From a virus, in the UHGV virus genome UHGV-0125682: a stretch of 64,000 nucleotides of DNA, one strand, 5' to 3'. The notes beneath the pieces were generated by a model that was given only the letters and a program-made list of their open reading frames with translations, ran no database searches and was not told where the DNA came from. Each line of letters starts with the position of its first letter. Positions within the stretch are counted from its first letter, which is position 1. Shown piece after piece: positions 1,525 to 64,000 of this stretch. The translations under genes and the position numbers were made by a program.

Positions 1525-4500
1525 TTGAACAAGTCAGTTACTTCCGCGCTATCCGAAGCAGCAGACATTAACAGTGTTATTGCGCTGGTTTCTTCATTAG
1601 AGAGGCGAGAAACACGCCAGGGGCGCAGTAGTTACGTAGTCACCAGTAAAGGGGCAGAGGTAAAGACGGCTTTTAAGGTCGTTGATGCCAGCAGTCTGAT
1701 CATTTCGAACAACCTTGACGGTACGATTAATCCGGCCTTCCCGGAAGAACTCCAGCCACGTGACCGTACACGGCTATCAAGCAAACTCCAGGTTAACCGT
1801 ATTGCCTCCAATTTACGCCCGGCACAATTAACGGATTCCGGCATGAGCAGCCACGGAGCGCCGATAGTTGGTCCGGACAACGTTGTTGAATCCGGCAACG
1901 GAAGGAGCATGGGTATCTGGCGTGCCTATGAGCAAGGGCAGGCGGATGAATATCGCCAGTACCTGATCGATCATGCAAAAGAGTTTGGTCTGAATCCTGA
2001 CGACATTTCACAAATGTCTATGCCCGTATTGGTGCGAGAAAGACTCACAGATGTAGACCGCGCACAATTTGCCCGCGATTCAAACATCAGCGATCTGCAA
2101 GAGATGGCTGCAAGTGAAAAAGCGTATGCGGATGCGCAATTTCTCACTGAGAGCGTCATGGCGCTATTTAATCCTTCAGATGATGGAAATCTACTGGCGC
2201 GGTCCAATGATGCGTTTATTCGTGCGTTTTTGCGCGAAATAGGTGATACGGCGACGGCAGGTTTGCTTACTGCCGATGGGCGTCCAACGAAACAACTTAT
2301 CGACCGCATCCAGAATGCAATTTTTGCCAAAGCGTACAAGGATGAAAGGCTTGTTCGGCTGGTGGCGGAAGAGCCAGATCCGGAAATGCGTAACATTCTT
2401 ACCGCATTAAATACGGCAGCCAGCGATTTTGCGCAAATGCAGTCGCTTTCAGGTGATGTTCACCATGACACGGTAACCGGACTGGTAGACGGTATAGAGC
2501 AATTGAATGGTCTGGATAAACAGGCTATTGCCGCGCTACAGGAAGCAATTAACCTTGTTCGTGAAGCAAAAGATAACGGTCAGGCAGTAGAAGAGGTGAT
2601 CGCACAGCGTGGATTGTTTGGAGATAGCACTCCGGAAGCAGAAGCGCTTGCTCTGTTTATTGTTGCCAACAACCGAAGCGCTAAGCGAATGGGGGCAGCT
2701 TTCAAGAAACTGGCGCAAAAAATTAACGATGAACTTATTCACCAGCAACAAGCGTTAGGCGATATGTTCGGCGGCGGAGATGTCGATCTGCGTAGCATTT
2801 TATCTGCCGTTTCTGATGAAATTGAGGCTGAGTATGGCGAAGGTAAAGGGCTTAATTTCGCCATGTTTGAATCGGTTTCAGGAGAGGTCGAACCATACAT
2901 TTCAAAGCTAATTGCTGATGCGACCAGCGTGGAGGACTTGATCCGAATCGTGAAGGTGTCAGAAAAAATTAAGGAGTCCGCAAAAAAAATAAAGCGCAAT
3001 GTATTTTTGGAACTTGGTTTTTATATTCGCAATGTCACCGTTAATGAGATTAAGGAGTGGGCTAAACGTTATGGATACAGCGACGCTGTGTTAACAACGA
3101 TGTTATTGTCTTATCAACGCAGCAATTTTTATGCTAACGCACTGCGTGACGCGATTGAAAAAGGAGATGAAGCTCCTTCGCTCGCAGATGAAAGAAATAT
3201 TGATTGTGATATTGAAACGTTTTGCAACATATCAGAAGAAGGCGTGCCCGCTGAACAATTTATACGTGTTTTACATAATGCAGCAAAACATATTCCTGAT
3301 GACTTTAGTATTGATGAATTGCGCAATGGTTGTCTTGTTTGGTTAGGTAACTATTTAAAATCTCCAGCGTCTATTGCAGAGAAAACAGCTTTAAGATTTA
3401 GAAAGGAAATGAATAAAGCTGGAAGCGCAGAAGAGATGGTGTGCATAATCCAAAATACTTTGAAGTTATTCAAAAAGAGCTTGCATAATATCGACGATAT
3501 TATGGCGGCTGGTAGGAAAATAACAGCCAGTGTCGGAGTTAGCTCTGAACTAACGGCAGAGGAGATCGCTGATGCGTATATTGAGACACTTGTCAGGCTT
3601 AAGGAGATAGTGGAATTAGCAGAGCATTCCTCATATTACGGAATCAAGGAGCGTGTTGACTTTACTATAGAACAAATCAATAAAGTTAGGTCAAATAAGG
3701 AAAAACTCACTGACTACCTTGCTGATGTTTTGCACCAGAATGATCATGGGATTGGATATGATCTGAAAAAAATGCTTGTTTTTAATCTGGACATACCGGA
3801 AGACTTGCAAGCAGAACTATATGAAATAGCTTCATTAACACGTGGACAAAAAGCCTATCCTAATGCGCTTGAAAATGTAGTACATAAAAAAGTCAGAGCC
3901 GCATTTGACATGATTCTTGAATCGTCAAATGTGTCACATGACCAGTCTAAGGAATGGAGTCGTGGGATTGCTATTTCTGATGAAGCAGAGCAGTTAAGTG
4001 GTCACGATAATGAAACTTTCTCCCGTAAAGCATACAGTATTCGCGAGACGATTGAAAAAGCCTATATTATTTCAGGAGGGACTTTATCTACATTAAAAAA
4101 TATTAACCACAAGAACAATGTTCGTGCTTTTGCAAGTCGAAATGGGAATATAACAATTGATGCTAATAGTGATCACGAGCGTGTATTATGGCATGAAATA
4201 GGTCACCATATAGAACATTCAAATCCCCATCTATTGGAGAGGGCCAAAGCCTTCATTAAATCAAAAACTAACGGTAAAGTTTCTTATCATAATATTGGTA
4301 GCCGTGGCAGTGCTGAGTATTTGGTGCGAACCGACCTAAGTCATGGATATATGTCTAAAATTTATATGGAAAATACGGTAAGTTCTGTCAGCGGCAGATT
4401 TATATCAAAGCCACCTGCATTAAGCAATTGCAGGGCGACTGAGATTTTTTCTATGGCCTTGCAGATGTATGCCGATCCGGAGCAGGCGACTAACTCTGTA

Positions 4501-4566
4501 TTAAACAATGACGGCGTGCTGGAATTTTTCTTGGGATGTATGAAGGAGTTGCAAAATGAAGTATAG
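1525..4566 (+). CDS. large polyvalent virion-type protein: ParB-like N-terminal motifs, HExxH metallopeptidase-like motif near C-terminus (P1 DdrB-sized)
   Basis: 1013-aa ORF; N-terminal NPAFPEELQPRDRTRL and GNGRSMGIWRA resemble ParB/Srx nuclease-domain motifs; WHEIGHH at about aa 885; C-terminal half markedly more AT-rich. Confidence 0.65.
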   Translation: MNKSVTSALSEAADINSVIALVSSLERRETRQGRSSYVVTSKGAEVKTAFKVVDASSLIISNNLDGTINPAFPEELQPRDRTRLSSKLQVNRIASNLRPAQLTDSGMSSHGAPIVGPDNVVESGNGRSMGIWRAYEQGQADEYRQYLIDHAKEFGLNPDDISQMSMPVLVRERLTDVDRAQFARDSNISDLQEMAASEKAYADAQFLTESVMALFNPSDDGNLLARSNDAFIRAFLREIGDTATAGLLTADGRPTKQLIDRIQNAIFAKAYKDERLVRLVAEEPDPEMRNILTALNTAASDFAQMQSLSGDVHHDTVTGLVDGIEQLNGLDKQAIAALQEAINLVREAKDNGQAVEEVIAQRGLFGDSTPEAEALALFIVANNRSAKRMGAAFKKLAQKINDELIHQQQALGDMFGGGDVDLRSILSAVSDEIEAEYGEGKGLNFAMFESVSGEVEPYISKLIADATSVEDLIRIVKVSEKIKESAKKIKRNVFLELGFYIRNVTVNEIKEWAKRYGYSDAVLTTMLLSYQRSNFYANALRDAIEKGDEAPSLADERNIDCDIETFCNISEEGVPAEQFIRVLHNAAKHIPDDFSIDELRNGCLVWLGNYLKSPASIAEKTALRFRKEMNKAGSAEEMVCIIQNTLKLFKKSLHNIDDIMAAGRKITASVGVSSELTAEEIADAYIETLVRLKEIVELAEHSSYYGIKERVDFTIEQINKVRSNKEKLTDYLADVLHQNDHGIGYDLKKMLVFNLDIPEDLQAELYEIASLTRGQKAYPNALENVVHKKVRAAFDMILESSNVSHDQSKEWSRGIAISDEAEQLSGHDNETFSRKAYSIRETIEKAYIISGGTLSTLKNINHKNNVRAFASRNGNITIDANSDHERVLWHEIGHHIEHSNPHLLERAKAFIKSKTNGKVSYHNIGSRGSAEYLVRTDLSHGYMSKIYMENTVSSVSGRFISKPPALSNCRATEIFSMALQMYADPEQATNSVLNNDGVLEFFLGCMKELQNEV

Positions 4567-4849
4567 CATTGTGAGTCCCGCTGGGATTAGAGGGATTGTT
4601 GAATGCTCTGATGACGGCACATTGCGTATATTTGAAGGCGATATTTCGGAAGAAAATATTGCGCAAGATTTACGCTTTATCAACACAAATTCCGCAATGG
4701 GGATCGTGAATACCATTCATGCCGATGGGGTGTTTGTTCTGCGGAGCCTGGAAACTGTTGGCTGGGAGGTTGAGTGGCCAGAGGTGGAAGGAGATCCTGA
4801 CGACGAAGACGATACTGGCGAATCATATCAAGACATTGATGTGAATTGA
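4556..4849 (+). CDS. small highly acidic protein (97 aa)
   Basis: ORF overlapping stop of the 1013-aa gene; C-terminus EVEGDPDDEDDTGESYQDIDVN; followed by intrinsic terminator. Confidence 0.5.
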   Translation: MKYSIVSPAGIRGIVECSDDGTLRIFEGDISEENIAQDLRFINTNSAMGIVNTIHADGVFVLRSLETVGWEVEWPEVEGDPDDEDDTGESYQDIDVN

Positions 4850-4862
4850 TATGATTGATAAT

Positions 4863-4885
4863 CCCGCCGTCAGGCGGGTTTTTTT
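4863..4885. terminator. intrinsic terminator between convergent genes
   Basis: cccgccgtcaggcggg hairpin plus T7 run. Confidence 0.7.
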
Positions 4886-5147
4886 AGCGTGGTGTAAGAA
4901 TAAATTCAGGATGCTCTCCAGCAAGCAATAACAGGTACTCAAATTCACCAGCCATAAGGCGTCTCGGTTTATTTCTATCTTCTTTGAATTGCCAAGCCCG
5001 GAGTTGATACCCCATTTTGTGGGCTAACTCCGTTTGCGTTAGCCCCATTCGCTGGCGGATTTCAATTATAGTTTCCGGGGTGTTTGGTGGGAGTTGTTTC
5101 ACAATATGCCCTTTGCCAATGCTGTGATTCGCAACGAAGTATATCAT
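4884..5147 (-). CDS. XRE-family HTH protein (antitoxin-like)
   Basis: MGLTQTELAHKMG helix-turn-helix signature; downstream partner of 5160..5462. Confidence 0.55.
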   Translation of the reverse strand: MIYFVANHSIGKGHIVKQLPPNTPETIIEIRQRMGLTQTELAHKMGYQLRAWQFKEDRNKPRRLMAGEFEYLLLLAGEHPEFILTPR

Positions 5148-9503: not shown

Positions 9504-9556
9504 CCTGTGTGTCTACAAAACATCCCAATGATCGGAAAATGCTCGTTCGATGATTT

Positions 9557-9573
9557 GTGTTAGAAAATTAATT
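9557..9573 (-). promoter_or_regulatory. operator-like repeat
   Basis: tgtgttagaaaattaat, with a second partial copy gtttctaaa at 9578..9586. Confidence 0.55.
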
Positions 9574-9641: not shown

Positions 9642-9670
9642 TTGATCTTCCATGTTTTCAGGCTTATATT
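9642..9670 (+). promoter_or_regulatory. sigma70-like promoter for immI-like module 1
   Basis: TTGATC, 17-nt spacer, TATATT, just downstream of operator. Confidence 0.45.
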
Positions 9671-9916
9671 CATGCCGTCGTAGCAAATTCTGCGACCGGG
9701 TTTGACAGCCTGAATACTTACGCGGACAACCGCACATTTCCGATATTGCGGTATTTTTGTGTCCGTAAAACCACGTTACGCCCGAATTATGGTGGGGCGT
9801 GATGGGGAGGCTTCGGCCTGCTGGTTTCGTAAGTGCCAGTCTGTCAACCCTGTCACGTCCTGCCACCTGTTTGACAGCGGGTCGCAGGTTGTTTATCAAC
9901 TTACGAGGCCGTAACT

Positions 9917-22982: not shown

Positions 22983-23059
22983 GATGGTGTAGCTCAGTAG
23001 GATAGAGCAGCAGCCTTCTAAGCTGTCGGTCGGTGGTTCGAATCCACCCACCATCGCCA
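22983..23059 (+). tRNA. tRNA-Arg (anticodon UCU)
   Basis: Manual cloverleaf fold: 7-bp acceptor GATGGTG/CACCATC, TTCGAAT T-loop, anticodon loop CTTCTAA, encoded CCA. Confidence 0.85.
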
Positions 23060-23061
23060 AT

Positions 23062-23137
23062 GCCGGTTTAGCTCAGTTGGTAGAGCGCCTGCCTTGTAAG
23101 CAGGATGTCAGCGGTTCGAGTCCGTTAACCGGCACCA
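23062..23137 (+). tRNA. tRNA-Thr (anticodon UGU)
   Basis: Manual fold: acceptor GCCGGTT/AACCGGC, anticodon loop CTTGTAA, T-arm AGCGG-TTCGAGT-CCGTT, CCA. Confidence 0.85.
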
Positions 23138-24974: not shown

Positions 24975-25050
24975 GGCCCTTTAGCTCAGTGGTTAGAGCT
25001 GGCGACTCATAATCGCACGGTCACCGGTTCAAGTCCGGTAGGGGCCACCA
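24975..25050 (+). tRNA. tRNA-Met or tRNA-Ile2 (anticodon CAU)
   Basis: Manual fold: acceptor GGCCCTT/AGGGGCC, anticodon loop CTCATAA, T-arm ACCGG-TTCAAGT-CCGGT, CCA. Confidence 0.8.
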
Positions 25051-29869: not shown

Positions 29870-30907
29870 TTACCAGAGCTTCGCGGCGTACTGCGTTTGG
29901 GGGAATGTGTATCCGTAACGTTCTTCGATTGCTTTGCCGTATTTTTTACGAGCTTCATTCAGTTTAATGCCGGTCAGGTCGTCTCCAGAGGCCATCATTA
30001 CGTCTAACAATTCCAGATCCATTTTATCCAACCTTGCCATTGCTTCACGTGATGTACGTATCTTACGCTCAATGATATGGCGAATAGCCGGATCGGCATC
30101 CTCCAGCATCTTAGCGGATTTCTGCTTAAGGCTTTCATTGCGAATATCGATGTTCCTTAAGATGTACGACTTCGCAACGTAGCTTGGCTGGTGTTTTTCC
30201 AGGTCACGAACACGATATAAGTTAAAATCGCCGAGAAGGCTGCATGGTACCGATTCGACGCCAGAATAAATTGTAATGCTCCGGCGTTCACCAACATTAT
30301 TGACAACGGGGATCGTTGTCTTCGGTAGTCTTGCGAAAACCAATGCGCCATGTGCGCCAACTCTAAAGCGAGAAAGGGCATTGCTGCCTTCGATGTTTGT
30401 TGTCAGCACAACATCTGTATATGCCTCTTTACGCGCCCGGTAGATCTCGCCTTCAGGCTCAGCTTCAAAGAAGCGCTGTTCTTCTTCAAGAGCACCTACG
30501 ATTTGAGAAAAAACCCTATTTTTCAGGCTTTTCTTTATGATTTTGTCGTATTTTTTTAGCAATTGTTCACGTGTAAATGTACGTGTTGTTGTAGCGCTTT
30601 GCACAACGACATGCGTGCTTTGATTGGTGTCCTCAATGATGAATGGGATCGGAGAATATACAGACTCAACAATGTTCGACGCTTTGCCGTCGGCATCGCG
30701 GCACATGTCAACGAAGGCTTTCCATTCAGCAAGACATTTTTCAGCTTCTTCTAATATGTTTTGGTCATGCGTTAATGCAACATGGCGGAATTCCTCGCCA
30801 GCATAACTGGTATCATGGAAAACAGAGTTTGCGACCACCAGCTCTTTCCACCGTTCAGCGGTTTGCAGGAACCGTTTGTACTCTTTCTCGATCGACTTCT
30901 TACTCAT
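29870..30907 (-). CDS. hypothetical protein in the P1 c1-equivalent position (candidate immunity repressor)
   Basis: Only gene between pacB and the rox-like site; operator copy 14 bp upstream of its start. Confidence 0.4.
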   Translation of the reverse strand: MSKKSIEKEYKRFLQTAERWKELVVANSVFHDTSYAGEEFRHVALTHDQNILEEAEKCLAEWKAFVDMCRDADGKASNIVESVYSPIPFIIEDTNQSTHVVVQSATTTRTFTREQLLKKYDKIIKKSLKNRVFSQIVGALEEEQRFFEAEPEGEIYRARKEAYTDVVLTTNIEGSNALSRFRVGAHGALVFARLPKTTIPVVNNVGERRSITIYSGVESVPCSLLGDFNLYRVRDLEKHQPSYVAKSYILRNIDIRNESLKQKSAKMLEDADPAIRHIIERKIRTSREAMARLDKMDLELLDVMMASGDDLTGIKLNEARKKYGKAIEERYGYTFPQTQYAAKLW

Positions 30908-30920
30908 TATTCCTACTCGA

Positions 30921-30940
30921 TTTAGTTTTCTAACATAAAA
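30921..30940 (+). promoter_or_regulatory. operator-like repeat
   Basis: tttagttttctaacataaaa. Confidence 0.55.
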
Positions 30941-31301: not shown

Positions 31302-32330
31302 ATGGGCGAATTAATTATCTCTGGCAGTTCCGGTGGTTTTCTGCGCAACATTGGCAAAGAGTACCAGGAAGCCGCAGAAAACTTTATGCGGTTCATGAAT
31401 GACCAGGGAGCTTATGCGCCGAATACTCTGCGCGACCTCCGTTTGGTGTTTCATTCCTGGGCGCGCTGGTGTCACGCTCGCCAGCTTGCCTGGTTTCCGA
31501 TCTCACCAGAAATGGCCCGCGAGTATTTTCTTCAGCTGCATGATGCCGATCTGGCTTCGACCACCATTGATAAGCACTACGCCATGCTGAACATGCTGCT
31601 TTCGCATTGTGGCCTTCCACCACTTTCGGATGATAAAAGTGTTTCTCTGGCTATGCGGCGCATCCGGCGCGAAGCGGCAACTGAAAAAGGCGAACGAACA
31701 GGCCAGGCTATACCGCTGCGGTGGGACGATCTGAAACTGCTCGACGTCCTGTTGTCCAGGTCTGAACGGCTGGTGGCCCTGCGCAACCGGGCTTTTCTCT
31801 TTGTTGCATACAATACGCTGATGCGTATGTCGGAAATCTCGCGTATTCGTGTAGGAGATCTGGACCAAACAGGTGACACTGTCACGCTACATATTTCACA
31901 CACGAAGACAATAACGACCGCCGCCGGGCTTGATAAGGTGCTTTCCCGTCGCACTACCGCTGTGCTGAATGACTGGCTGGATGTTTCCGGGCTTCGCGAA
32001 CATCCTGACGCAGTGCTGTTCCCGCCGATACACCGTAGCAATAAGGCCAGGATCACGATAACGCCCCTTACTGCACCTGCAATGGAGAAAATATTCAGCG
32101 ACGCCTGGGTGTTGCTGAATAAAGGAGATGCTACGCCAAACAAAGGAAGATACCGGACGTGGACCGGGCATAGTGCACGCGTCGGGGCCGCTATCGATAT
32201 GGCTGAAAAGCAGGTCTCTATGGTGGAGATTATGCAGGAAGGAACCTGGAAGAAACCGGAAACACTTATGCGGTATCTGCGCCGTGGCGGCGTGTCTGTG
32301 GGGGCTAATAGCCGCCTGATGGATTTATAA
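31302..32330 (+). CDS. Cre/Dre-like tyrosine site-specific recombinase
   Basis: Alignable with Cre along its length (WFPxxPE, MRRIRRE, AFLxxAYNTLxRxxEIxRIRVxD, SGHSARVGAAxDMA, catalytic Tyr region MRYLR). Confidence 0.9.
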   Translation: MGELIISGSSGGFLRNIGKEYQEAAENFMRFMNDQGAYAPNTLRDLRLVFHSWARWCHARQLAWFPISPEMAREYFLQLHDADLASTTIDKHYAMLNMLLSHCGLPPLSDDKSVSLAMRRIRREAATEKGERTGQAIPLRWDDLKLLDVLLSRSERLVALRNRAFLFVAYNTLMRMSEISRIRVGDLDQTGDTVTLHISHTKTITTAAGLDKVLSRRTTAVLNDWLDVSGLREHPDAVLFPPIHRSNKARITITPLTAPAMEKIFSDAWVLLNKGDATPNKGRYRTWTGHSARVGAAIDMAEKQVSMVEIMQEGTWKKPETLMRYLRRGGVSVGANSRLMDL

Positions 32331-47738: not shown

Positions 47739-48045
47739 GTACTCTCCTTTCGAAATAAACGTACTGATTAATCATGCTCAAGGGCATTTCGAGTTTTTCT
47801 GCGATCTCACGGCGGGGAACACCACACCGATGAAGCTGCCGTGCCAGTTCTATATCGCCCTGCCGGTATTTGGCTGACGGGTGAAAGTCTCCTTTCAGAA
47901 TCATGCAGATCCGCAGTTGCCGCGCTTTGGTTCTGACAGCACTACCGGTACGCCCGATCAGCCTCCCAATACTCTCGACTGTCATAGTCCCGGCGCACTG
48001 GCGGAGTATCATGATTTCTGCCCTTCCCCATCCCCGCCAGCTCAC
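47728..48045 (-). CDS. hypothetical protein, possible HTH
   Basis: ORF. Confidence 0.4.
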   Translation of the reverse strand: MSWRGWGRAEIMILRQCAGTMTVESIGRLIGRTGSAVRTKARQLRICMILKGDFHPSAKYRQGDIELARQLHRCGVPRREIAEKLEMPLSMINQYVYFERRVHEV

Positions 48046-48656
48046 GCAGAACTCCTTCTAACCAAAAGAACGCCATCTTCAGAAACAACGTTGCAGGACT
48101 TCAGGTAATTCATTGCCTCTTTCGGTAATGGATTCTTTGGATCGGCGTTTGCCAGGGATTTCGATAACCTCATGATAAATTTGATCATTACCTTCTGGCG
48201 GAGCTTGTGCTCATGAGATAAAGACAGGTAATAGGAAATGGTATGGGCTAAACGCTCACGAAGCTGTTCTGTGCCGTGATATACAGCAGCGATATCACGC
48301 AGTGCATTGACCAGTTCCCGGTAAATATGCGGAGCAACCTGGCATTCAATGTTGGTTGGTGACTCATAAATTACAGTCAGCCCCAGCTTTTCAGCCAGCG
48401 CGTGCTCTGCACGAGCACCAATCGATTCCTCCCATCGATTGAGCAAGTAGATCGCATCAGCAGAACGCACCATTGCCAGGCAAATATCCATGTATTCACT
48501 CTGACAAAGGCCACCAGGTAACACAGCTGGATTCAGAACGATATGCCCTTCAGCCATCAGCTCGCTCGCTTTCGCATTAAACGCCGCACGGTTGTAGTCT
48601 GGATAACCAGTCATCGGCCCCGCGATGTAAATTTTCAAAACACGTCTCACCATCAA
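48042..48656 (-). CDS. nucleoside 2-deoxyribosyltransferase-like (DUF1937/DUF4406-type) protein
   Basis: N-terminal KIYIAGPMTGYPDYNRAAF signature. Confidence 0.5.
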   Translation of the reverse strand: MMVRRVLKIYIAGPMTGYPDYNRAAFNAKASELMAEGHIVLNPAVLPGGLCQSEYMDICLAMVRSADAIYLLNRWEESIGARAEHALAEKLGLTVIYESPTNIECQVAPHIYRELVNALRDIAAVYHGTEQLRERLAHTISYYLSLSHEHKLRQKVMIKFIMRLSKSLANADPKNPLPKEAMNYLKSCNVVSEDGVLLVRRSSA

Positions 48657-48845
48657 AATTTCCCCAGCATCGTGACGAAAAACATCAGCACGGCAAAAAG
48701 CTCAATACCTAATTCAAGTAGCGCCAACGCCCCGAAAAAAAACACATAGAACAGGCCAATCTCATTCACAGATGGCTGGTGGATCGCACTTAAAGCTATA
48801 AGCATCATGTCCTCCAAACATTTATCAGTGATGATATTAATGTTT

Positions 48846-48865
48846 TGTGTTAGAAAATCAATTTT
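48846..48865 (-). promoter_or_regulatory. operator-like repeat
   Basis: tgtgttagaaaatcaatttt upstream of ref-like gene. Confidence 0.55.
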
Positions 48866-48925: not shown

Positions 48926-49504
48926 ATGCAGAAACAGAGCTATTGGGAGAAACAGAGACAAAAAGCCATGCAAAAATTGGCTGACCCAGCCTGGCGAGAG
49001 GAACAAAGGGCAAAGCGCCTTCAACAAGCTCAACGCCAGCAGCAGCGAGCGAGAGAAAAAGCCGCATCGCCTGAATATCGGCAAAAGAAAATTGAAAAAG
49101 CAAAGCAATATGAACAGCGGAGAAAAGATAAAGCTGTATCCGCTCCGTCCAAAAAAACACGCACGTCACGCGGCCTGAAAGGCAGATCACTCACAGCCGA
49201 TGAACGCCGGATACAGACCGCTATCGGTGCTCTCCCCTGCATTGCCTGCCATATTCACGGGCAACATAGCCCAGTGGTATCCCTGCACCATATCTTCGGG
49301 AGAACGGCAGAGAACGCGCATAAATATGTCCTCCCTTTGTGTAAATGGCACCACCAGTACGCAGCGCCAGCCGAGGTCAGAGAACAATATCCCTGGCTGG
49401 TCCCTGTTCATGCTGACGGAAAAATAGGCGGAAAAGCAGATTTCATGCGGCACAATGCCGATGAAATGACGTTGTATCAGATGGCGATTGAGTTGATAAA
49501 TTAG
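48926..49504 (+). CDS. ref: Ref-like HNH endonuclease
   Basis: Basic Lys/Arg/Gln-rich N-terminal 80 aa then His/Cys cluster (CIACHIHGQHS, HHIFGR, CKWHH); operator upstream. Confidence 0.6.
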   Translation: MQKQSYWEKQRQKAMQKLADPAWREEQRAKRLQQAQRQQQRAREKAASPEYRQKKIEKAKQYEQRRKDKAVSAPSKKTRTSRGLKGRSLTADERRIQTAIGALPCIACHIHGQHSPVVSLHHIFGRTAENAHKYVLPLCKWHHQYAAPAEVREQYPWLVPVHADGKIGGKADFMRHNADEMTLYQMAIELIN

Positions 49505-50003: not shown

Positions 50004-50315
50004 AACACTGACTGTTGCGCCCTGGCATTATCGTGGGGTATATTTCTACGGCACCTTAGAAAAACGGGTGCCGGGATTGGAACCCCGGATAATGCAAAAG
50101 GCGACACAGACGCCGAAAGCGTCTTTTTTTGTGTCATGCCATCGCACAGCCATACGTAGCGTTTAGCTCAGAGATCAATGGTAGTGCTGGCTGGGCTGCC
50201 GAAAGGCAGGCCGGTTCCCTTTTGCGCCGGTAGTTCCAACCCAGTCAGTGCTACCGCCATTGAGATTGGAACCTCACGCGGTAGCTCCTTAAATTAGCAA
50301 AAGGAGGCTGCCAAT

Positions 50316-57253: not shown

Positions 57254-58045
57254 ATGGGCCGTTTTGACGAATGGTTTTCTGACGATGCAAACCTGGCAAG
57301 TAAGGAGTCAGAACATGACAGCACGCAGAGAGAAACGCCAGCGCCGATTGAAGCGAATGCAGGAGGCGCGCCGGAACATGGCAATACCAGTTCGGATTCA
57401 TTCAGCATTCTGGAAGAGCAACCCGCCGCCAAAGCTGATAGCCATGATAATTTTGCTGATAGCAACGGTGGCCTTACTCCAGATGCTGGCGAATCAGATA
57501 TAGCCATACTTCCACCTTCCCTGGCTGGCAGAGAACCAACTCCACAGCTAAAAGCACGCTATAACGGGCATAAAGCCTTTAACGACCAAATCCGCGCAGA
57601 CTGGATGCTGATTATTGAATCCAGCCCAGACGCGTTTCAGGCTCTCTTATATCGACCAGATGTTGGCACATATGGGGTAGTCAGCGACGAAACAGGAGAA
57701 GAGTCATTCACTGAACTGGATAACAACCAGCGCGAACTGACTTACCAGGAACCTGAAATCGTTTATGTGCTGGATAACCCGGACGGGCGTGACTCTTTCC
57801 ATGCGATTGACGCAGACGGTGAGCAGGATGGCTTAACCGATGATGTTCTGATTCTGCGTATTGCAGCAAATAACGTCCCCGTCGGCTCAATTCTTGAATG
57901 GAATGAAGAGATGGTAAACGGCGTAGCCCGCCGCTGGTGGTACGTGCACCGTATTTTTAGCTACGGCACACAGCATGTTGGTTCGCTTTACTACTGCATA
58001 CCAGCCAGGAATTTTGATACGACTCAAAACGGAGTGATCGAATGA
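57254..58045 (+). CDS. hypothetical acidic protein (possible tail/baseplate module)
   Basis: Start reassigned to MGRFDEWF with GAGGA RBS. Confidence 0.45.
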   Translation: MGRFDEWFSDDANLASKESEHDSTQRETPAPIEANAGGAPEHGNTSSDSFSILEEQPAAKADSHDNFADSNGGLTPDAGESDIAILPPSLAGREPTPQLKARYNGHKAFNDQIRADWMLIIESSPDAFQALLYRPDVGTYGVVSDETGEESFTELDNNQRELTYQEPEIVYVLDNPDGRDSFHAIDADGEQDGLTDDVLILRIAANNVPVGSILEWNEEMVNGVARRWWYVHRIFSYGTQHVGSLYYCIPARNFDTTQNGVIE

Positions 58046-58809
58046 CTTCAAATAAAACCCTCCTGGCGCGAACAGGTGAATGGCAAACCTCACGCACAGG
58101 AAAATTCCAGACCACGGGCTTTGAAAACGTGGATAACGCGTTTGCGACGCTAATCAGCAACATTTTTTCTGATATCTTACTGGTGGCCCCCGCGCCGGAA
58201 GAAAAACGCTTTGCGTCATTCTTGAATCGTCCACCAGCAGAGCGTGTCTATGTGGCCCGTTTCGACAATGCGATCGAGTTTCTTAAAGCGGTTCGTCGCG
58301 CAAATGCCGGGCAAGGGAGAAAACCTGAAAACCAGAACATTAACCGGGATGCTCTCCCCCTGGTCAATATCTCACGCACTATGGATATCAATTATATCAA
58401 CGATGATCAGCAGATTGACCGCAAAAAAGTAGCCAGTTTTTGCGAACCGGATACCGGAATGCCTTTAGCAGAACTGGAATACACCCAGGCCATTCTGACG
58501 TATGACGTTACGTTAATGGCAACTGATAAAGCGACCATGAGTCTGATGTGTAATTCGCTGGGCGCACGGCTTCGCCTGATGACAGGTACACAATTTGAAG
58601 CAACCACTCACCTTGTTCGTGTTCCGGTCCCGCTGATTTGCTCGATACAGGATGCCAAAGAAGTCGGCTTTACGGATGTTTCAGCACCAATTGGAGAAGA
58701 GCGTATTTATGCCACACAAGCGCCGATAAGTGTGATTGCAGACGTGATCACAGCATGGGAGTTGGACGCAAAACGTATTATTACCGAAACCTCGATATCT
58801 ATGGGGTGA
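58042..58809 (+). CDS. hypothetical protein (possible baseplate)
   Basis: Overlapping operon. Confidence 0.45.
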   Translation: MTSNKTLLARTGEWQTSRTGKFQTTGFENVDNAFATLISNIFSDILLVAPAPEEKRFASFLNRPPAERVYVARFDNAIEFLKAVRRANAGQGRKPENQNINRDALPLVNISRTMDINYINDDQQIDRKKVASFCEPDTGMPLAELEYTQAILTYDVTLMATDKATMSLMCNSLGARLRLMTGTQFEATTHLVRVPVPLICSIQDAKEVGFTDVSAPIGEERIYATQAPISVIADVITAWELDAKRIITETSISMG

Positions 58810-58812
58810 TAA

Positions 58813-59793
58813 GTGGCCCAGGAGTTACAACAATATTTTCTACAGTCAGTGCTCATTAACGATAACAAAGTGCCACGAGACTGGATTTTTACCGCAGTAT
58901 ATGTAGAAAAAACCAGCCTCAAAGCCCCTTTGCTAAAACTGGAAATTCATGACGCTACCGGCACCGTAATTGATGACTGGAAAGCCAAATACGGTGCATC
59001 GCTGGTGGCTGAAATGGGCGATCCAAACGGTAATGCAGGCACTTTTAAAACAGATTTCTTTGTTACGTCTGCAATGCTGGCTGGTGATGTTGTTACCGTT
59101 ATTGCTGTCAGTGAAGACGTGCGCAGGTTTAAGCTCCCCTCCCCGCGCACAAATTTACATACCAACAAAACACCAGACGCTATATTCAAGGCATATTCCG
59201 GCAAGCTTAAAATTACCAGCAGCGTGCTAAAACGCGCAGTTACATATCATCTGAATGCCGGTGACAAACCGTCAAAAATGCTTTCGGAGATAGCGCGAGA
59301 CAAAGGTGCATTATGTTGGGTATGCCGGGGGGAATTTAACTTTTACACCCTGGATGATCTGATGAAGCAAACGCCATCATTTACCTACGAGGGGAATAAC
59401 CCTAAAGCAGAATACACTTTGTCCAAAATGCGCCTACTCCAACAGGAACATGCGACAACAGCAAAGAATCAATATCGTTTTGTTGGGTATTCCATGACCG
59501 ATGGCTACGTCGAATATGGCGATAGCTCACTCCCAGTGCGTTATATATCCGACTCTGATATGGAAACTCTTCGCAATATGCAGCTGTCTCTCGTCCCCAA
59601 AATGGATATAGAAGTCGCAGGCAATCCTGATATAAAACCGGGGATGGTGATAGAGATTATCGTATACCGCTATGACCAGGAAAACCGCATTGATGAATCA
59701 ATGCCCCGTAAGCTGATAGTAAAAAATGTTGCGCACTTTGAAGACCGCGTAGGCTACACAACACGAATGATATTGGGAGTGCCGAACAAATGA
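58813..59793 (+). CDS. hypothetical protein (possible baseplate hub)
   Basis: Precedes spike-like gene. Confidence 0.45.
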   Translation: MAQELQQYFLQSVLINDNKVPRDWIFTAVYVEKTSLKAPLLKLEIHDATGTVIDDWKAKYGASLVAEMGDPNGNAGTFKTDFFVTSAMLAGDVVTVIAVSEDVRRFKLPSPRTNLHTNKTPDAIFKAYSGKLKITSSVLKRAVTYHLNAGDKPSKMLSEIARDKGALCWVCRGEFNFYTLDDLMKQTPSFTYEGNNPKAEYTLSKMRLLQQEHATTAKNQYRFVGYSMTDGYVEYGDSSLPVRYISDSDMETLRNMQLSLVPKMDIEVAGNPDIKPGMVIEIIVYRYDQENRIDESMPRKLIVKNVAHFEDRVGYTTRMILGVPNK

Positions 59794-60443
59794 AGCGTAG
59801 AGCGCAAATTGTTGGAACTGTGCACCCGGCAGGGCTTATGCGTGCTCAAGTCCGTGTTTTACCTGACTGGAATGGCGTTCCTGATGACGATCTACCCTGG
59901 GCGGAATACCTGTTACCCATCGGAAACGCTTTTGTACCCACAGTCAAAGGTGACCTGGTCTGGGTAGAGTTTCCTTATTTAGATGTTAACGGTCGAATAG
60001 ACACCAGACGCCCAATGATAGTTGGTGCCGCTCAGGATGCACCGGGAGGAATTCCAAACGTTGCACCAGAAGCATCTGGCAAAGGCAACGGCTGGACGCC
60101 GCCGGAAGTAGATGGAGCACCTCCCCGCCCCCAAATCTCAGCAACGAAAGACTTCGTTATTCACCGCAACAATATTCTTGAAGTACGAACTGCTGGTGGC
60201 GGCTATGAAATTGCCAATACGGCAGCAGGCTCAAGGATTGGCATGAATGAGTCCGGGCAGATATATATCATTGGTCCGGCTGATGTAATCGTGAATGCAG
60301 GAGGGAGTGTTAACGTCAAATCAGCCAACAACATCAATGTTAATGGGGAAAATATAGCTGTCACCGCTAACGGGGACATAGCTTTCAAGGCTGGGGGAAC
60401 CTTTCAGGCCACTGCTGGCAACTTCGATTTCAAGAAAGGATAG
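59790..60443 (+). CDS. baseplate central spike-like protein
   Basis: N-terminal OB-fold-like segment (VRVLPDWNG...GDLVWVEF) then Gly/Asn-rich beta-helix repeats. Confidence 0.5.
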   Translation: MKRRAQIVGTVHPAGLMRAQVRVLPDWNGVPDDDLPWAEYLLPIGNAFVPTVKGDLVWVEFPYLDVNGRIDTRRPMIVGAAQDAPGGIPNVAPEASGKGNGWTPPEVDGAPPRPQISATKDFVIHRNNILEVRTAGGGYEIANTAAGSRIGMNESGQIYIIGPADVIVNAGGSVNVKSANNINVNGENIAVTANGDIAFKAGGTFQATAGNFDFKKG

Positions 60444-60457
60444 AAAATGCACCCATT

Positions 60458-60495
60458 TGTGTTAGATAATTAATATGTATTTTCTAACATAAATG
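60458..60495. promoter_or_regulatory. pair of operator-like repeats
   Basis: tgtgttagataattaat and gtattttctaacataaatg upstream of rdgC-dmt. Confidence 0.55.
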
Positions 60496-60502
60496 GTGAG
60501 AC

Positions 60503-61408
60503 ATGAGATCAGTCGCTTTCAAAAATATCTTCATCTATCGTCTTTCACGCGAAGTTAGCTGGGATACTGCAGAAGTAAATGCAGCCCTTAGCAAGTTTGT
60601 GTTTACCCCATGCGGTTCTCAGGATATGACTAAAGCTGGTTGGACCCCCGTTCTTGGTGACAACCTCACCCATGAATACCAGGGTTTTCTTCTGATACAG
60701 CATAAACGAGAGGAAAAAATCCTACCTTCTCAAGTGCTCAAAGAAGAGTTACAGAAAAAAATCCTGACACTTGAAGAAGAGCAAGACAGAAAGCTGAAGA
60801 AGACCGAAAAAGATTCGCTGAAGGATGAAGTGCTTCACTCTCTTCTTCCTCGTGCTTTCACGAGAAAATCAGTCGCTAAAATCCTGATAGACCGAAGCAA
60901 TCATCTGGTTTTTGTCGAGGCCAGCAGTGCTAAAAAAGCAGAGGATCAGCTGGCTTTGTTACGGAAATCGCTTGGCAGCTTGCCAGTGGTCCCCTTCTCT
61001 CCGAAAGACCCATTAGAACTGACCATCACTGGCTGGATTAAAAATGGCTTCCCGAACGGTTTCCGTGCCGGTGAGGAAGCGACTTTAAAAGCATTGCTTG
61101 ATGATGGCGGCGCGGTCCGCTGCAAAAAAGTGGACCTGCTATCCGACGAGATAATGAGTCATATAGAAGCTGGTAAGGTTGCAACCACAGTTGCGGTCAA
61201 CTGGCAAGACCGTGCATTTTTCAGACTGAATGACGATATGAGTATCAAGGCTTTGTCGTTCAGCGACGAATTGTACGACCAGAACGACGGTATTGATCGA
61301 GAGGATGTTGCGCAACGATTTGACGCTGACTTTATCCTATTTACTGCTGAATTATCAGCGATGTTCACCTCGCTAGTGGAGGCCGTTGGTGGTGAAGCAG
61401 AACGTTAA
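60503..61408 (+). CDS. rdgC: RdgC-like recombination-associated protein
   Basis: Closely resembles bacterial RdgC as I recall it ([70 protein letters not shown]). Confidence 0.85.
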
Positions 61409-63680
61409 CCTTCGATATGGTTCAGTTTGCAGTGGAATTGAAGCCGCGAGCATTGCCTGGGAACCGTTGGGTATGCGTCCGGCGTGGTTTGCTGAAATTG
61501 AGCCTTTTCCATCTGCCGTTCTTGCGCACCGCTGGCCTCATGTCGCCAACCTTGGCGATATGACAAAACTTGCCAAAAAAGTCCTGGCTGGGGAAATCGA
61601 ATCCCCTGATGTGCTCGTCGGGGGAACACCTTGTCAGGCATTCAGTATCGCGGGATTACGTGGTGGGCTTGATGATGAGCGCGGCGCGCTAACTTTGAAG
61701 TATGTGGAGCTTGCAAATGCAATTGACGACAAACGGTCTGAGTCCTTCCTCAAACCGACAGTTATCGTCTGGGAAAATGTCCCAGGAGTCCTGTCATCGG
61801 CAGATAACGCCTTCGGATGTTTCCTTGCCGGATTGGCTGGAGAAGATGCACCATTTGAACCAGGTGATCGACCTGAATCAGGAAAAAGTAACGCGTTCTG
61901 GCGGTGGGATGGCAAAACCGGTTGCCATGCTCCAAAGTGGCCGCAGTGTGGTTGTATTTATGGACCGCAGCGAAAGGTGGCCTGGAGAATACTTGATGCC
62001 CAATACTTCGGAGTGGCACAACGACGCCGACGCGTGTTTGTTGTCGCAAGTGCTCGAACAGACCTCGATCCCGCAACGGTACTTTTTGAGTTCGAAGGCG
62101 TGCGCCGGGATATTGCGCCGAGCCGAAAAAAGAAGGAAATCGCTTCCGCCATTATTGCAAATGGCGCTGCAATCAGTGGCGAAAGCCTAAATCCATGCCT
62201 ACACGCTGACATTCCACCCGGTATGAAATCGACGAAAGCCGTAAACGCTTTCAGGATGGCAGCATTTGGGGAATATATTGACGATGAAACCGCATCGACA
62301 GTAAAGGCAAGAGATTTTAAAGATGCCACTGACCTTGCCGTTTTTAGCAGCACAGGAGCAGGTTTTTGGTCAGAAGGGCATGGTACATTGCGGGCACGTG
62401 AGCAAGAAAGCCATGAGCATCTTGTTACATTGGCTTTTCCTGAGCGTATGAGCGGTACACAACATGCTGCAACTAAGAATACTTCACCATCTCTAATGGC
62501 TAAAAATCCAACAGCTGTTTGCTATGAAGTAAGAAACGCAGAAGTAGCTGTCCGCCGTCTTACCCCTGTCGAATGTGAAAGGCTGCAAGGTTTTCCTGAT
62601 GGGCATACGTTGATCCCGACGGAAAAGCGTAAAAAAGTTAATTCAGATGAACTGGCATATCTTCGCAATCACTATCCAGATTTAAGCGAAGAAGAGGCCG
62701 CGATGCTTGCAGCTGACGGACCGCGTTACAAAGCGATCGGCAACAGCATGGCAGTTCCTGTTATGCAATGGATAGGGTGTCGCATTCTTGCGACCGTAGC
62801 GGATAAACAGCAAAAAACAATAAATACCATTACCTACACAAGAAAACTCCGGACTCCGGATGAATATGAACGCCCAATATTCAAATGGGTAGGCGGTAAA
62901 TTCTCAGAGTTGCCTACAGTGCTTGAGCATCTACCACACGGCAAGCGGTTAATAGAACCATTCGTTGGTGGCGGTTCCGTATTTACGAATGCAGGATTTC
63001 GCCACAACCTGCTTAATGATATTAACGGTGACCTGATTAACTTCTATCAGACATTGCAGCGAGAAGGACATTCGCTCGTCACGCTGTCATATAGTTTTTT
63101 CCAAAATTACAACAACGCTGACGCTTACCTCGAAGTGCGTGAGGCATTTAACAGAGGAAAGTATGACCAGCTACATCATGCTGCCGCCTTTTTGTACCTT
63201 AATCGGCACTGTTTTAATGGCGTAACGCGGTACAACCAAAATGGCGAGTTCAACGTGGGGTATGGCAAATACAAAGCGCCCTACTTCCCACATGCAGAGA
63301 TGGAGGCATTTTTGGCTGATGACGTACTCAAAAACACGTCCTTTGTATCAGGTGACTTTGCTGGCGTCATCGAGGCGGCTGGTGAAGGCGATGTGATTTT
63401 TTGCGATCCGCCGTATGAACCGCTGCCGGATACAGAAGGGTTTACCAGTTATTCAGGAAATAGCTTCCGTTTCGACGAACAGAAACGGCTGGTATCTCTA
63501 TTGGTGGAAGCCCACCAGCGCGGCGCTAAGGTAGTGATAACAAATAGTGGTGCGCCAAACATCCGTGAACTATATGAAGGAAACGGGTTTAAAGTACATC
63601 ATATGGCAGCCAGACGGTCGGTGTCCTGCAAGGCGTCAACACGTGTAGTTGCTAACGATATAATTGCAATAATGAAGTAA
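61389..63680 (+). CDS. dmt: Dmt-like bifunctional DNA methyltransferase (C5-cytosine N-terminal, Dam-like N6-adenine C-terminal)
   Basis: PCQ motif GGTPCQAFS and ENV motif; C-terminal KWVGGK and DPPY; GTG start after GGAGG RBS, overlapping rdgC end. Confidence 0.85.
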
Positions 63681-63682
63681 AA

Positions 63683-63712
63683 AACGCCGCAGTAGCGGCG
63701 TTTACTTTTTTA
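63683..63712. terminator. bidirectional intrinsic terminator at phage/host junction
   Basis: acgccgcagtagcggcgt hairpin plus T-rich run. Confidence 0.7.
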
Positions 63713-63728
63713 TGTGGCGAAATACCTA

Positions 63729-64000
63729 TTAACCTAACTTCGCCCAGGTATCACGCAGCCCAACGGTGCGGTTAAATACCGGTTTTTCCGCCGTAGAATG
63801 GCGGCTGTCGAGGCAGAAATAACCTTCACGCTCAAACTGGAATGCTTTACCCGCTACCGCTTCTTTCAGCGACGGTTCAGCAAAACCCTGTTTGATCACC
63901 AGCGATTCCGGGTTAATCACCGACAGGAAATCATCCGCAGCACCTGGGTTCGGCACGCTGAACAGACGATCGTACAGGCGGATTTCAACCGGCAGCGCAT
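63729..64000 (-). CDS. glnS: glutaminyl-tRNA synthetase 3' end (partial, continues past window)
   Basis: C-terminal translation ...[35 protein letters not shown] matches GlnRS as I recall it; frame open to window end. Confidence 0.7.

Follow-up and report, generated by a model that had tools for sequence, protein, structure and literature searches.

What does an RdgC-family gene do at the head of a DNA methyltransferase operon in a phage, and how much of this arrangement is already known from related phages? The question is raised by a locus close to the end of a 64,000-nt stretch of viral DNA (UHGV virus genome UHGV-0125682), referred to here as the window. A sequence-only reading had placed at 60503-63680 a full-length RdgC-like protein behind a pair of operator repeats, with its stop codon overlapping the start of a dual methyltransferase, and these coordinates proved exact. 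Positions 58000 to 64000 belong to a phage-plasmid of the P1 family that resembles D6.

Operon layout

The following features were assigned to the operon.

60441..60470, plus strand, predicted sigma-70 promoter (TAGAAA, 18-nt spacer, GATAAT; 9 of 12 consensus matches)
60453..60470, minus strand, left arm of a putative bivalent operator (ATTATCTAACACAAATGG on the minus strand; inverted repeat; identical in phage D6)
60479..60496, plus strand, right arm of the putative bivalent operator (ATTTTCTAACATAAATGG; covers the start of the 5' leader)
60503..61408, plus strand, hrdC (301 aa, ATG start; RdgC family; homologue of P1 HrdC and D6 orf65)
61378..61382, plus strand, Shine-Dalgarno sequence GGAGG of dmt, within the 3' end of hrdC (by sequence inspection)
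61392..63680, plus strand, dmt (762-763 aa; fused C5-cytosine, N-terminal, and Dam-type N6-adenine, C-terminal, DNA methyltransferase)
61406-61408, plus strand, hrdC stop codon TAA
63682..63703, both strands, bidirectional intrinsic-terminator-like hairpin (9-bp stem with 6 GC pairs, T runs)

The upstream neighbor is a homologue of baseplate gene 5 that ends at 60443, leaving a 59-nt intergenic space to hrdC in which a uhr gene is absent. No terminator is present between the baseplate gene and hrdC, so late read-through may also express the operon. The predicted promoter comes from a consensus scan and is weak taken alone, but it is the sole promoter-like site found in this intergenic space, and its spacer and -10 hexamer are covered by the left operator arm. 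The dmt reading frame is open from TTG 61386. Its likely start is either GTG 61392, the start position annotated for D6 orf64, or GTG 61389, and the GGAGG sequence lies 9 or 6 nt upstream of these codons, respectively. With either GTG start, dmt overlaps hrdC by 17-20 nt, and the overlap of stop and start described in the sequence-only reading is confirmed. Both methylase domains, PF00145 (C5 methylase) and PF02086 (D12 Dam methylase), are encoded in one intact reading frame. A Rho-independent-type hairpin and T run at 63682-63703 closes the operon and separates dmt from a convergent glutaminyl-tRNA-synthetase-like gene (glnS-like). A search with Rfam at gathering thresholds identified no RNA element in 60400-64000.

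The HrdC protein

The product of hrdC is a full-length member of the RdgC family. Its match to Pfam RdgC (PF04381) spans model positions 3-298 of 298, with an E value of 2.7e-101 and 339.3 bits against a curated cut-off of 25 bits, and the protein also matches PHROG 724 (E = 1.3e-125). Alignments to the E. coli RdgC structure 2OWL (E = 5.7e-109) and to 2OWY, an RdgC-family ring-dimer structure (E = 1.5e-63), extend end to end. Amino acid identity is 89% to D6 orf65, 60% to E. coli RdgC, and 54% to P1 HrdC. Identity of 60% to a protein of solved structure settles the predicted fold.

RdgC is a toroidal dimer, and ten residues of the E. coli protein were shown to matter by Briggs et al. 2010 (PMC2965237). 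Nine of the ten are conserved in HrdC (R97, K98, K100, K101, R118, F120, E218, H222, and K227), for which reason HrdC very likely is toroidal and binds double-stranded DNA non-specifically. The fingertip basic residues R97, K98, K100, and K101, which serve the loading of the ring on circular DNA, are all present, and the gate interface residues R118 and F120 are both found within an invariant block. At the horseshoe interface, E218, H222, and K227 are kept and Q212 is replaced by valine in HrdC of both the window and D6. Within the set of 20 compared sequences, valine at position 212 is confined to these two proteins, and glutamine occupies the position in P1 HrdC, the distant relative L013, four lambdoid copies, and 12 chromosomal RdgCs. 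The Q212A substitution abolishes the in vivo function of E. coli RdgC while DNA binding is normal. Because Q212 is replaced in D6-type HrdC and Q212A inactivates E. coli RdgC, the RecA-related activity of D6-type HrdC may differ from that of host RdgC. We found no biochemical or genetic experiment dedicated to a phage HrdC or RdgC protein in the searchable literature; in a genome-wide CRISPRi screen, P1 hrdC scored as non-essential and its knock-down gave no plaque phenotype (PMC10695390).

Operator repeats and a putative repressor regulon

The pair of operator repeats reported in front of hrdC is an 18-nt inverted repeat, 60453-60470 on the minus strand and 60479-60496 on the plus strand, in which 16 of 18 positions are complementary and the arms lie 8 nt apart. 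The repeat motif has four matches in the window at up to three mismatches, compared with 0.17 expected. In the complete D6 genome the motif ATTWTCTAACAYAAAT has six sites, compared with 0.34 expected, all of them intergenic. Every copy of the motif lies between genes and close to a gene start. The D6 sites lie in front of the c1 homologue, in front of the c4/icd/ant region, in front of hrdC (the pair), within the divergent region of ref and orf88, and in front of orf52; the copy before orf52 is extra to those in the window.

The loci marked by the motif in the window are those annotated in P1 as under C1 control. One copy lies 18 bp before the c1 homologue (window 30925; D6 194), which was annotated as follows.

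29870-30907, minus strand, c1 homologue (345 aa, 21% identical to P1 C1)

Another copy, at window position 9553, precedes an immI-type region, in which Rfam identified a C4 antisense RNA and a1b1 targets at 9664-9870, followed by the icd and anti-repressor genes. A third copy, at 48843, is in a divergent region beside the gene for the RecA-dependent nuclease Ref (PF16786). In P1, c1, c4-icd-ant (immI), ref, and dmt are C1-controlled (PMC4713147 and the P1 annotation), dmt is induced along with other C1-controlled genes (PMC4713147), and hrdC and dmt change together in RNA-seq data (bioRxiv 10.64898/2025.12.28.696737). Because the motif recurs at the c1, c4-icd-ant, and ref loci, the repeats before hrdC are very probably operators of a D6-type C1 repressor; we infer repressor binding solely from this distribution of the motif.

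We also searched for operators of P1 specificity. The P1 operator consensus ATTGCTCTAATAAATTT has two poor matches in the window, each with four mismatches (at 30940 and 43639), and no match in the hrdC-dmt region, and P1-type operators were rejected for this reason. The identity of only 21% between the two C1 proteins fits an operator sequence unlike that of P1. An analogous inverted pair (TGTTAGATT and AATCTAAACA) precedes hrdC in the distant relative L013. On this assignment, hrdC would also share one repressor regulon with the gene for the RecA-dependent nuclease Ref.

Mosaic structure and history of the operon

Comparison with P1 and D6 revealed segments of different affinity. The operator region is nearly that of D6, with one base different over the 59-nt intergenic space and 3 of 141 nt different in the aligned stretch, and the first 380 nt of hrdC match those of D6 at ~99% identity. 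From ~60900 to its 3' end (~500 nt), hrdC has ~72% identity to D6 and 46-64% identity to P1, which places a recombination breakpoint within the gene near 60880-60900; no source was found for this 3' segment. The C5 module (61484-62683) is 95-100% identical to P1 dmt per 100-nt bin, with most bins at 98-100%. From 62850 to 64000, a stretch that spans orf63 (Dam) and the end of glnS, identity to D6 is again high (98.7%). Judged by these identities, the operon is a mosaic in which the 5' part of hrdC and the Dam module resemble D6, the C5 module resembles P1, and the 3' part of hrdC is distinct. Further C5 variants follow the same hrdC in additional viral contigs of the D6-like group.

The ratio of non-synonymous to synonymous substitution (dN/dS) in hrdC is ~0.09 in the comparison with D6 and 0.06-0.12 between diverged alleles (dS ~0.7-1.3), values that indicate that the gene is under strong purifying selection. 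Identity between the window HrdC and chromosomal RdgC is uniformly 58-61% across the 80 best-matching chromosomal loci found, nearly all of them from named Enterobacterales. When 12 of these were placed in a tree, they grouped into a tight clade, with 74-89% identity to E. coli RdgC, and the phage copies fell outside of it. Because HrdC is equidistant from the chromosomal RdgCs, and because those form a separate tight clade, hrdC is by these comparisons an old phage lineage. A recent capture of hrdC from a host chromosome was rejected on the same two grounds. P1 and D6-type HrdC form no shared group in the identity-based neighbor-joining tree, which carries no support values.

Linkage of hrdC to the methylase

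A methylase coding region lies directly 3' of hrdC in every D6-like viral locus examined (L003-L014) and in L013. Some of the D6-like loci have the C5 module of the window, and others have that of D6 or further variants. The start of the methylase overlaps the end of hrdC in L003, L007, L010, L012, and L013, in which a P1-type C5 module could be aligned, as well as in D6 and P1, and the overlap was found in all loci where it could be checked. The methylase keeps its place directly behind hrdC in P1, D6, the window type, and L013 even though identity among their HrdC proteins is only 54-66%.

Among the 80 best viral loci, a methylase is directly downstream only in those of the P1/D6 family (L003-L014). 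Loci of the lambdoid type have no overlapping methylase, and in some of them a Dam or C5 gene occurs at kilobase distance. A general or obligate linkage of RdgC and methylase in phages is unsupported, since the lambdoid RdgC homologues have no overlapping methylase.

Proposed mechanism and alternative readings

We consider it probable that hrdC-dmt is an early operon of a D6-like, P1-family phage-plasmid that works as follows. In the plasmid prophage state, the C1-type repressor encoded at 29870-30907 would bind 60453-60496 and occlude the promoter. Derepression would produce one mRNA that ends at the hairpin at 63682-63703 and encodes HrdC and then Dmt, and the observed position of the dmt start inside the 3' end of hrdC suggests coupled translation of the two genes. 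Given the 60% identity to E. coli RdgC and the conserved functional residues, HrdC is predicted to dimerize into a ring of the RdgC type, to bind double-stranded DNA irrespective of sequence, and to limit the activities of RecA filaments (strand exchange, RecFOR-dependent loading, and co-protease signalling). This limitation of RecA would act on replicating phage DNA in the early lytic phase. Dmt would methylate two kinds of site. One is GATC, whose methylation is required for pac cleavage in P1, and the other is a C5-cytosine target that depends on the exchangeable N-terminal module and may protect the DNA from restriction. The two genes would travel together as an inherited operon.

The sequence-only reading had suggested coordinated control of host recombination and restriction evasion. 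Modulation of RecA combined with restriction evasion is a reasonable reading by homology and is the same as the guess made in the P1 annotation. What is documented for P1 Dmt is that it methylates GATC in pac for packaging, a function needed in dam- hosts (PMC12707154); restriction evasion is plausible solely for the swappable C5 module.

Other roles for HrdC have to be weighed against RecA modulation. Lambda RexA has the RdgC fold (PMC11077077), and the authors of a survey of lambdoid phages proposed a RexA-like role for phage RdgC homologues (PMC12315714). HrdC would then be a switch or exclusion factor, a non-specific DNA binder that biases the choice of lysis or lysogeny or excludes other phages, with no modulation of RecA. 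The loss of Gln212, a residue needed in vivo but not for DNA binding, would fit such a changed role. We nevertheless regard it as unlikely, given that there is no RexB-like membrane partner next to hrdC, where the neighbors are the methylase (3') and the baseplate gene (5'), and that control would be by operators of a lytic regulon. Judged by the operator pair, hrdC would be repressed in the lysogen, an expression pattern unlike that of the Rex system. It is very improbable that hrdC is a passenger, a host-derived copy that serves no function specific to the phage, and of the readings considered we give this one the least credence. The non-essentiality of P1 hrdC under CRISPRi (PMC10695390) and the high similarity to a host gene of housekeeping type speak for it, but the dN/dS of ~0.09 contradicts it, hrdC is retained in diverged P1-family lineages, and the phage lineage appears old, at 58-61% identity from all sampled chromosomal RdgCs.

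The constancy of the gene pair itself could point to a functional partnership, in which HrdC as a DNA-encircling ring tethers or guides Dmt on phage DNA that has just been replicated. RdgC dimers are toroidal (PMC2965237), the methylase follows hrdC in all of P1, D6, the window type, and L013 despite divergence and C5 swaps, and a partnership would explain the conserved translational coupling. However, the boundary of hrdC and the methylase is a recombination joint at which the same hrdC is found with different methylase modules, and this free exchange argues against co-adapted surfaces on HrdC and Dmt. Neither the lambdoid homologues nor chromosomal RdgC are overlapped by a methylase gene, and common descent of one operon suffices as an explanation of the linkage, so that a partnership appears very unlikely. 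A broader variant, in which D6-type HrdC is a re-purposed RdgC ring that works with Dmt, Ref, or both on replicating phage DNA, is also improbable. Its grounds are that the DNA-loading and gate residues are all kept, that Gln212 is stably replaced, that the coupling to a methylase has persisted through several swaps, and that hrdC would have its repressor regulon in common with ref. If it were true, HrdC would do more than copy host RdgC and could, for example, shield or mark phage DNA from cleavage by RecA and Ref, or tether the methylase. Modulation of RecA by an RdgC-type ring that is made together with Dmt on derepression is the most economical reading for HrdC.

For the most part, these results confirm existing annotation, in that hrdC and dmt are already annotated in P1 and D6. 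The analysis adds a consensus for the probable operator of the D6-type repressor, with a putative regulon of four loci that parallels that of P1, and modular exchange at the joint of hrdC and the methylase. The role of phage RdgC homologues, which are carried by hundreds of phages, is not made newly testable by the window, but D6-type HrdC, with its Q212V replacement, is a natural variant well suited to probing the function of a phage RdgC homologue.

Comparison with known systems

Whether P1 has a homologue of this gene had been raised in the sequence-only reading, and it does. In phage P1 (GenBank AF234172), hrdC (65510-66415) is annotated as RdgC family and overlaps dmt (66412-68676), behind Odmt and Pdmt. 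The P1 uhr-hrdC-dmt operon (Odmt/Op68, Pdmt) and the operon of the window both have an RdgC-family gene that is 5' of, and overlaps, the gene for a bifunctional C5/Dam methylase. Each lies behind a C1-type operator and is co-regulated with c1, the c4-icd-ant immI region, and ref, putatively so in the window. The two differ in that uhr is the first gene in P1 and is missing from the window, and in that the P1 Odmt is a single site (ATTGCTCTAATAAATAT), whereas the window has an inverted pair of different sequence. The map position also differs, being between upfC and the ban region in P1 and after baseplate gene 5 and before the glnS-like gene in the window. The gene overlap is 4 nt (GTGA) in P1 and 17 nt in D6, compared with 17-20 nt in the window.

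Another close counterpart is orf65-orf64-orf63 of phage D6 (GenBank MF356679), in which orf65 is annotated as similar to P1 hrdC and overlaps orf64. Gene order is the same in D6 and the window, from the gene 5 homologue to hrdC, the methylases, and the convergent glnS. The D6 methylases are separate, with an unrelated 226-aa C5 methylase (orf64) followed by Dam (orf63), whereas in the window a P1-type C5 module is fused in frame to Dam. The arrangement is also found on plasmids. The E. coli plasmid NZ_CP067430 has 98.9% identity along the entire 58000-64000 region, ~20 others are alike, and PLSDB plasmids 98-99% identical to the region are annotated with rdgC, a Dam-family methylase, and glnS.

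Outside of the P1 family, the characterized counterpart of HrdC is E. coli RdgC (2OWL), a toroidal DNA-binding inhibitor of RecA functions that is 60% identical to HrdC over its full length. Unlike E. coli rdgC, hrdC of the window is phage-borne, under putative repressor control, coupled to a methylase, and outside of the tight Enterobacterales clade. RdgC homologues are encoded in 390 of 50,697 phage records, including phages of Vibrio, Pseudomonas, and Klebsiella, and the lambdoid homologues lie in early DNA-metabolism regions (PMC12315714). Lambda RexA is related to HrdC by fold alone and works with RexB (PMC11077077). The RdgC homologue and methylase, under putative repressor control, are the D6-like version of the annotated P1 hrdC-dmt operon, a common gene pair, and the system as such is already known.

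Mosaic structure of the hrdC-dmt pair

Identity comparison of the window with phages D6 and P1, which both carry hrdC-methylase gene pairs, placed three recombination joints in the region of hrdC (RdgC family) and dmt (fused C5/Dam methylase).

60880-60900: joint 1, within hrdC, from a D6-like 5' part to a 3' part only ~72% identical to D6
61410-61480: joint 2, at the hrdC/dmt boundary
62700-62850: joint 3, in the linker, from a P1-like C5 module to a D6-like Dam module
61100-61115: HrdC residue aligned with Escherichia coli RdgC Q212, here Val

Gln212, part of the horseshoe interface network of E. coli RdgC, is invariant elsewhere in the sequences compared and is replaced by Val in both diverged D6-type hrdC alleles. 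The Q212A substitution in E. coli RdgC abolishes in vivo function and leaves DNA binding intact.

Among the viral loci compared, a lambdoid-type contig (L061, IMGVR_UViG_3300031419_000529) encodes an RdgC homologue at 3998-5140 with a C-terminal extension of ~80 aa (SISGLQRQFRIGYNRAARLIEQME), which, judged by eye, resembles an FtsK-gamma-type winged helix. Beyond one small ORF downstream of this homologue lies a putative N6-adenine methylase gene, whose product contains the NPPY motif (FANPPYS).

Copies of the probable operator motif and regulatory RNAs

The probable operator motif found before hrdC (ATTTTCTAACAYAAA) has further copies at three positions in the window, listed here with their neighbors and the RNA loci.

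9553-9568 (-): operator copy preceding the c4-icd-ant region
9664-9870: immI-like locus 1, C4 antisense RNA and a1b1 targets
29870-30907: c1 homologue (345 aa), neighbor of cre
30925-30940 (+): operator copy, 18 bp before the c1 homologue
31302-32330: cre
48042-48656 (-): DUF4406 protein gene (E=1.1e-33)
48843-48858 (-): operator copy adjoining the ref homologue
48926-49504: ref homologue
50051-50261: immI-like locus 2, isrK-family match, then C4 RNA

The DUF4406 gene is divergent from ref, and the operator-bearing intergenic region is common to both. Judged from motif position, the three copies would jointly outline a D6-type C1 regulon paralleling that of P1. The two immI-like loci, identified with Rfam, are separate, consistent with the D6 annotation of two icd/anti-repressor gene pairs.

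Translation-related genes

Rfam also called three tRNA genes, within 22983-23134 and 24975-25047; D6 likewise carries tRNAs (Ser, Thr, and Asn). A gene resembling that for glutaminyl-tRNA synthetase converges on dmt, with its 3' end inside the window:

63729-64000 (-): glnS-like gene, continuing past the window end

This segment is 98.7% identical to D6, where its counterpart is orf62, annotated as "similar to E. coli GlnS." It is unusual for a phage-plasmid to carry a complete aminoacyl-tRNA synthetase, but such a gene has previously been annotated in D6 and many plasmids.
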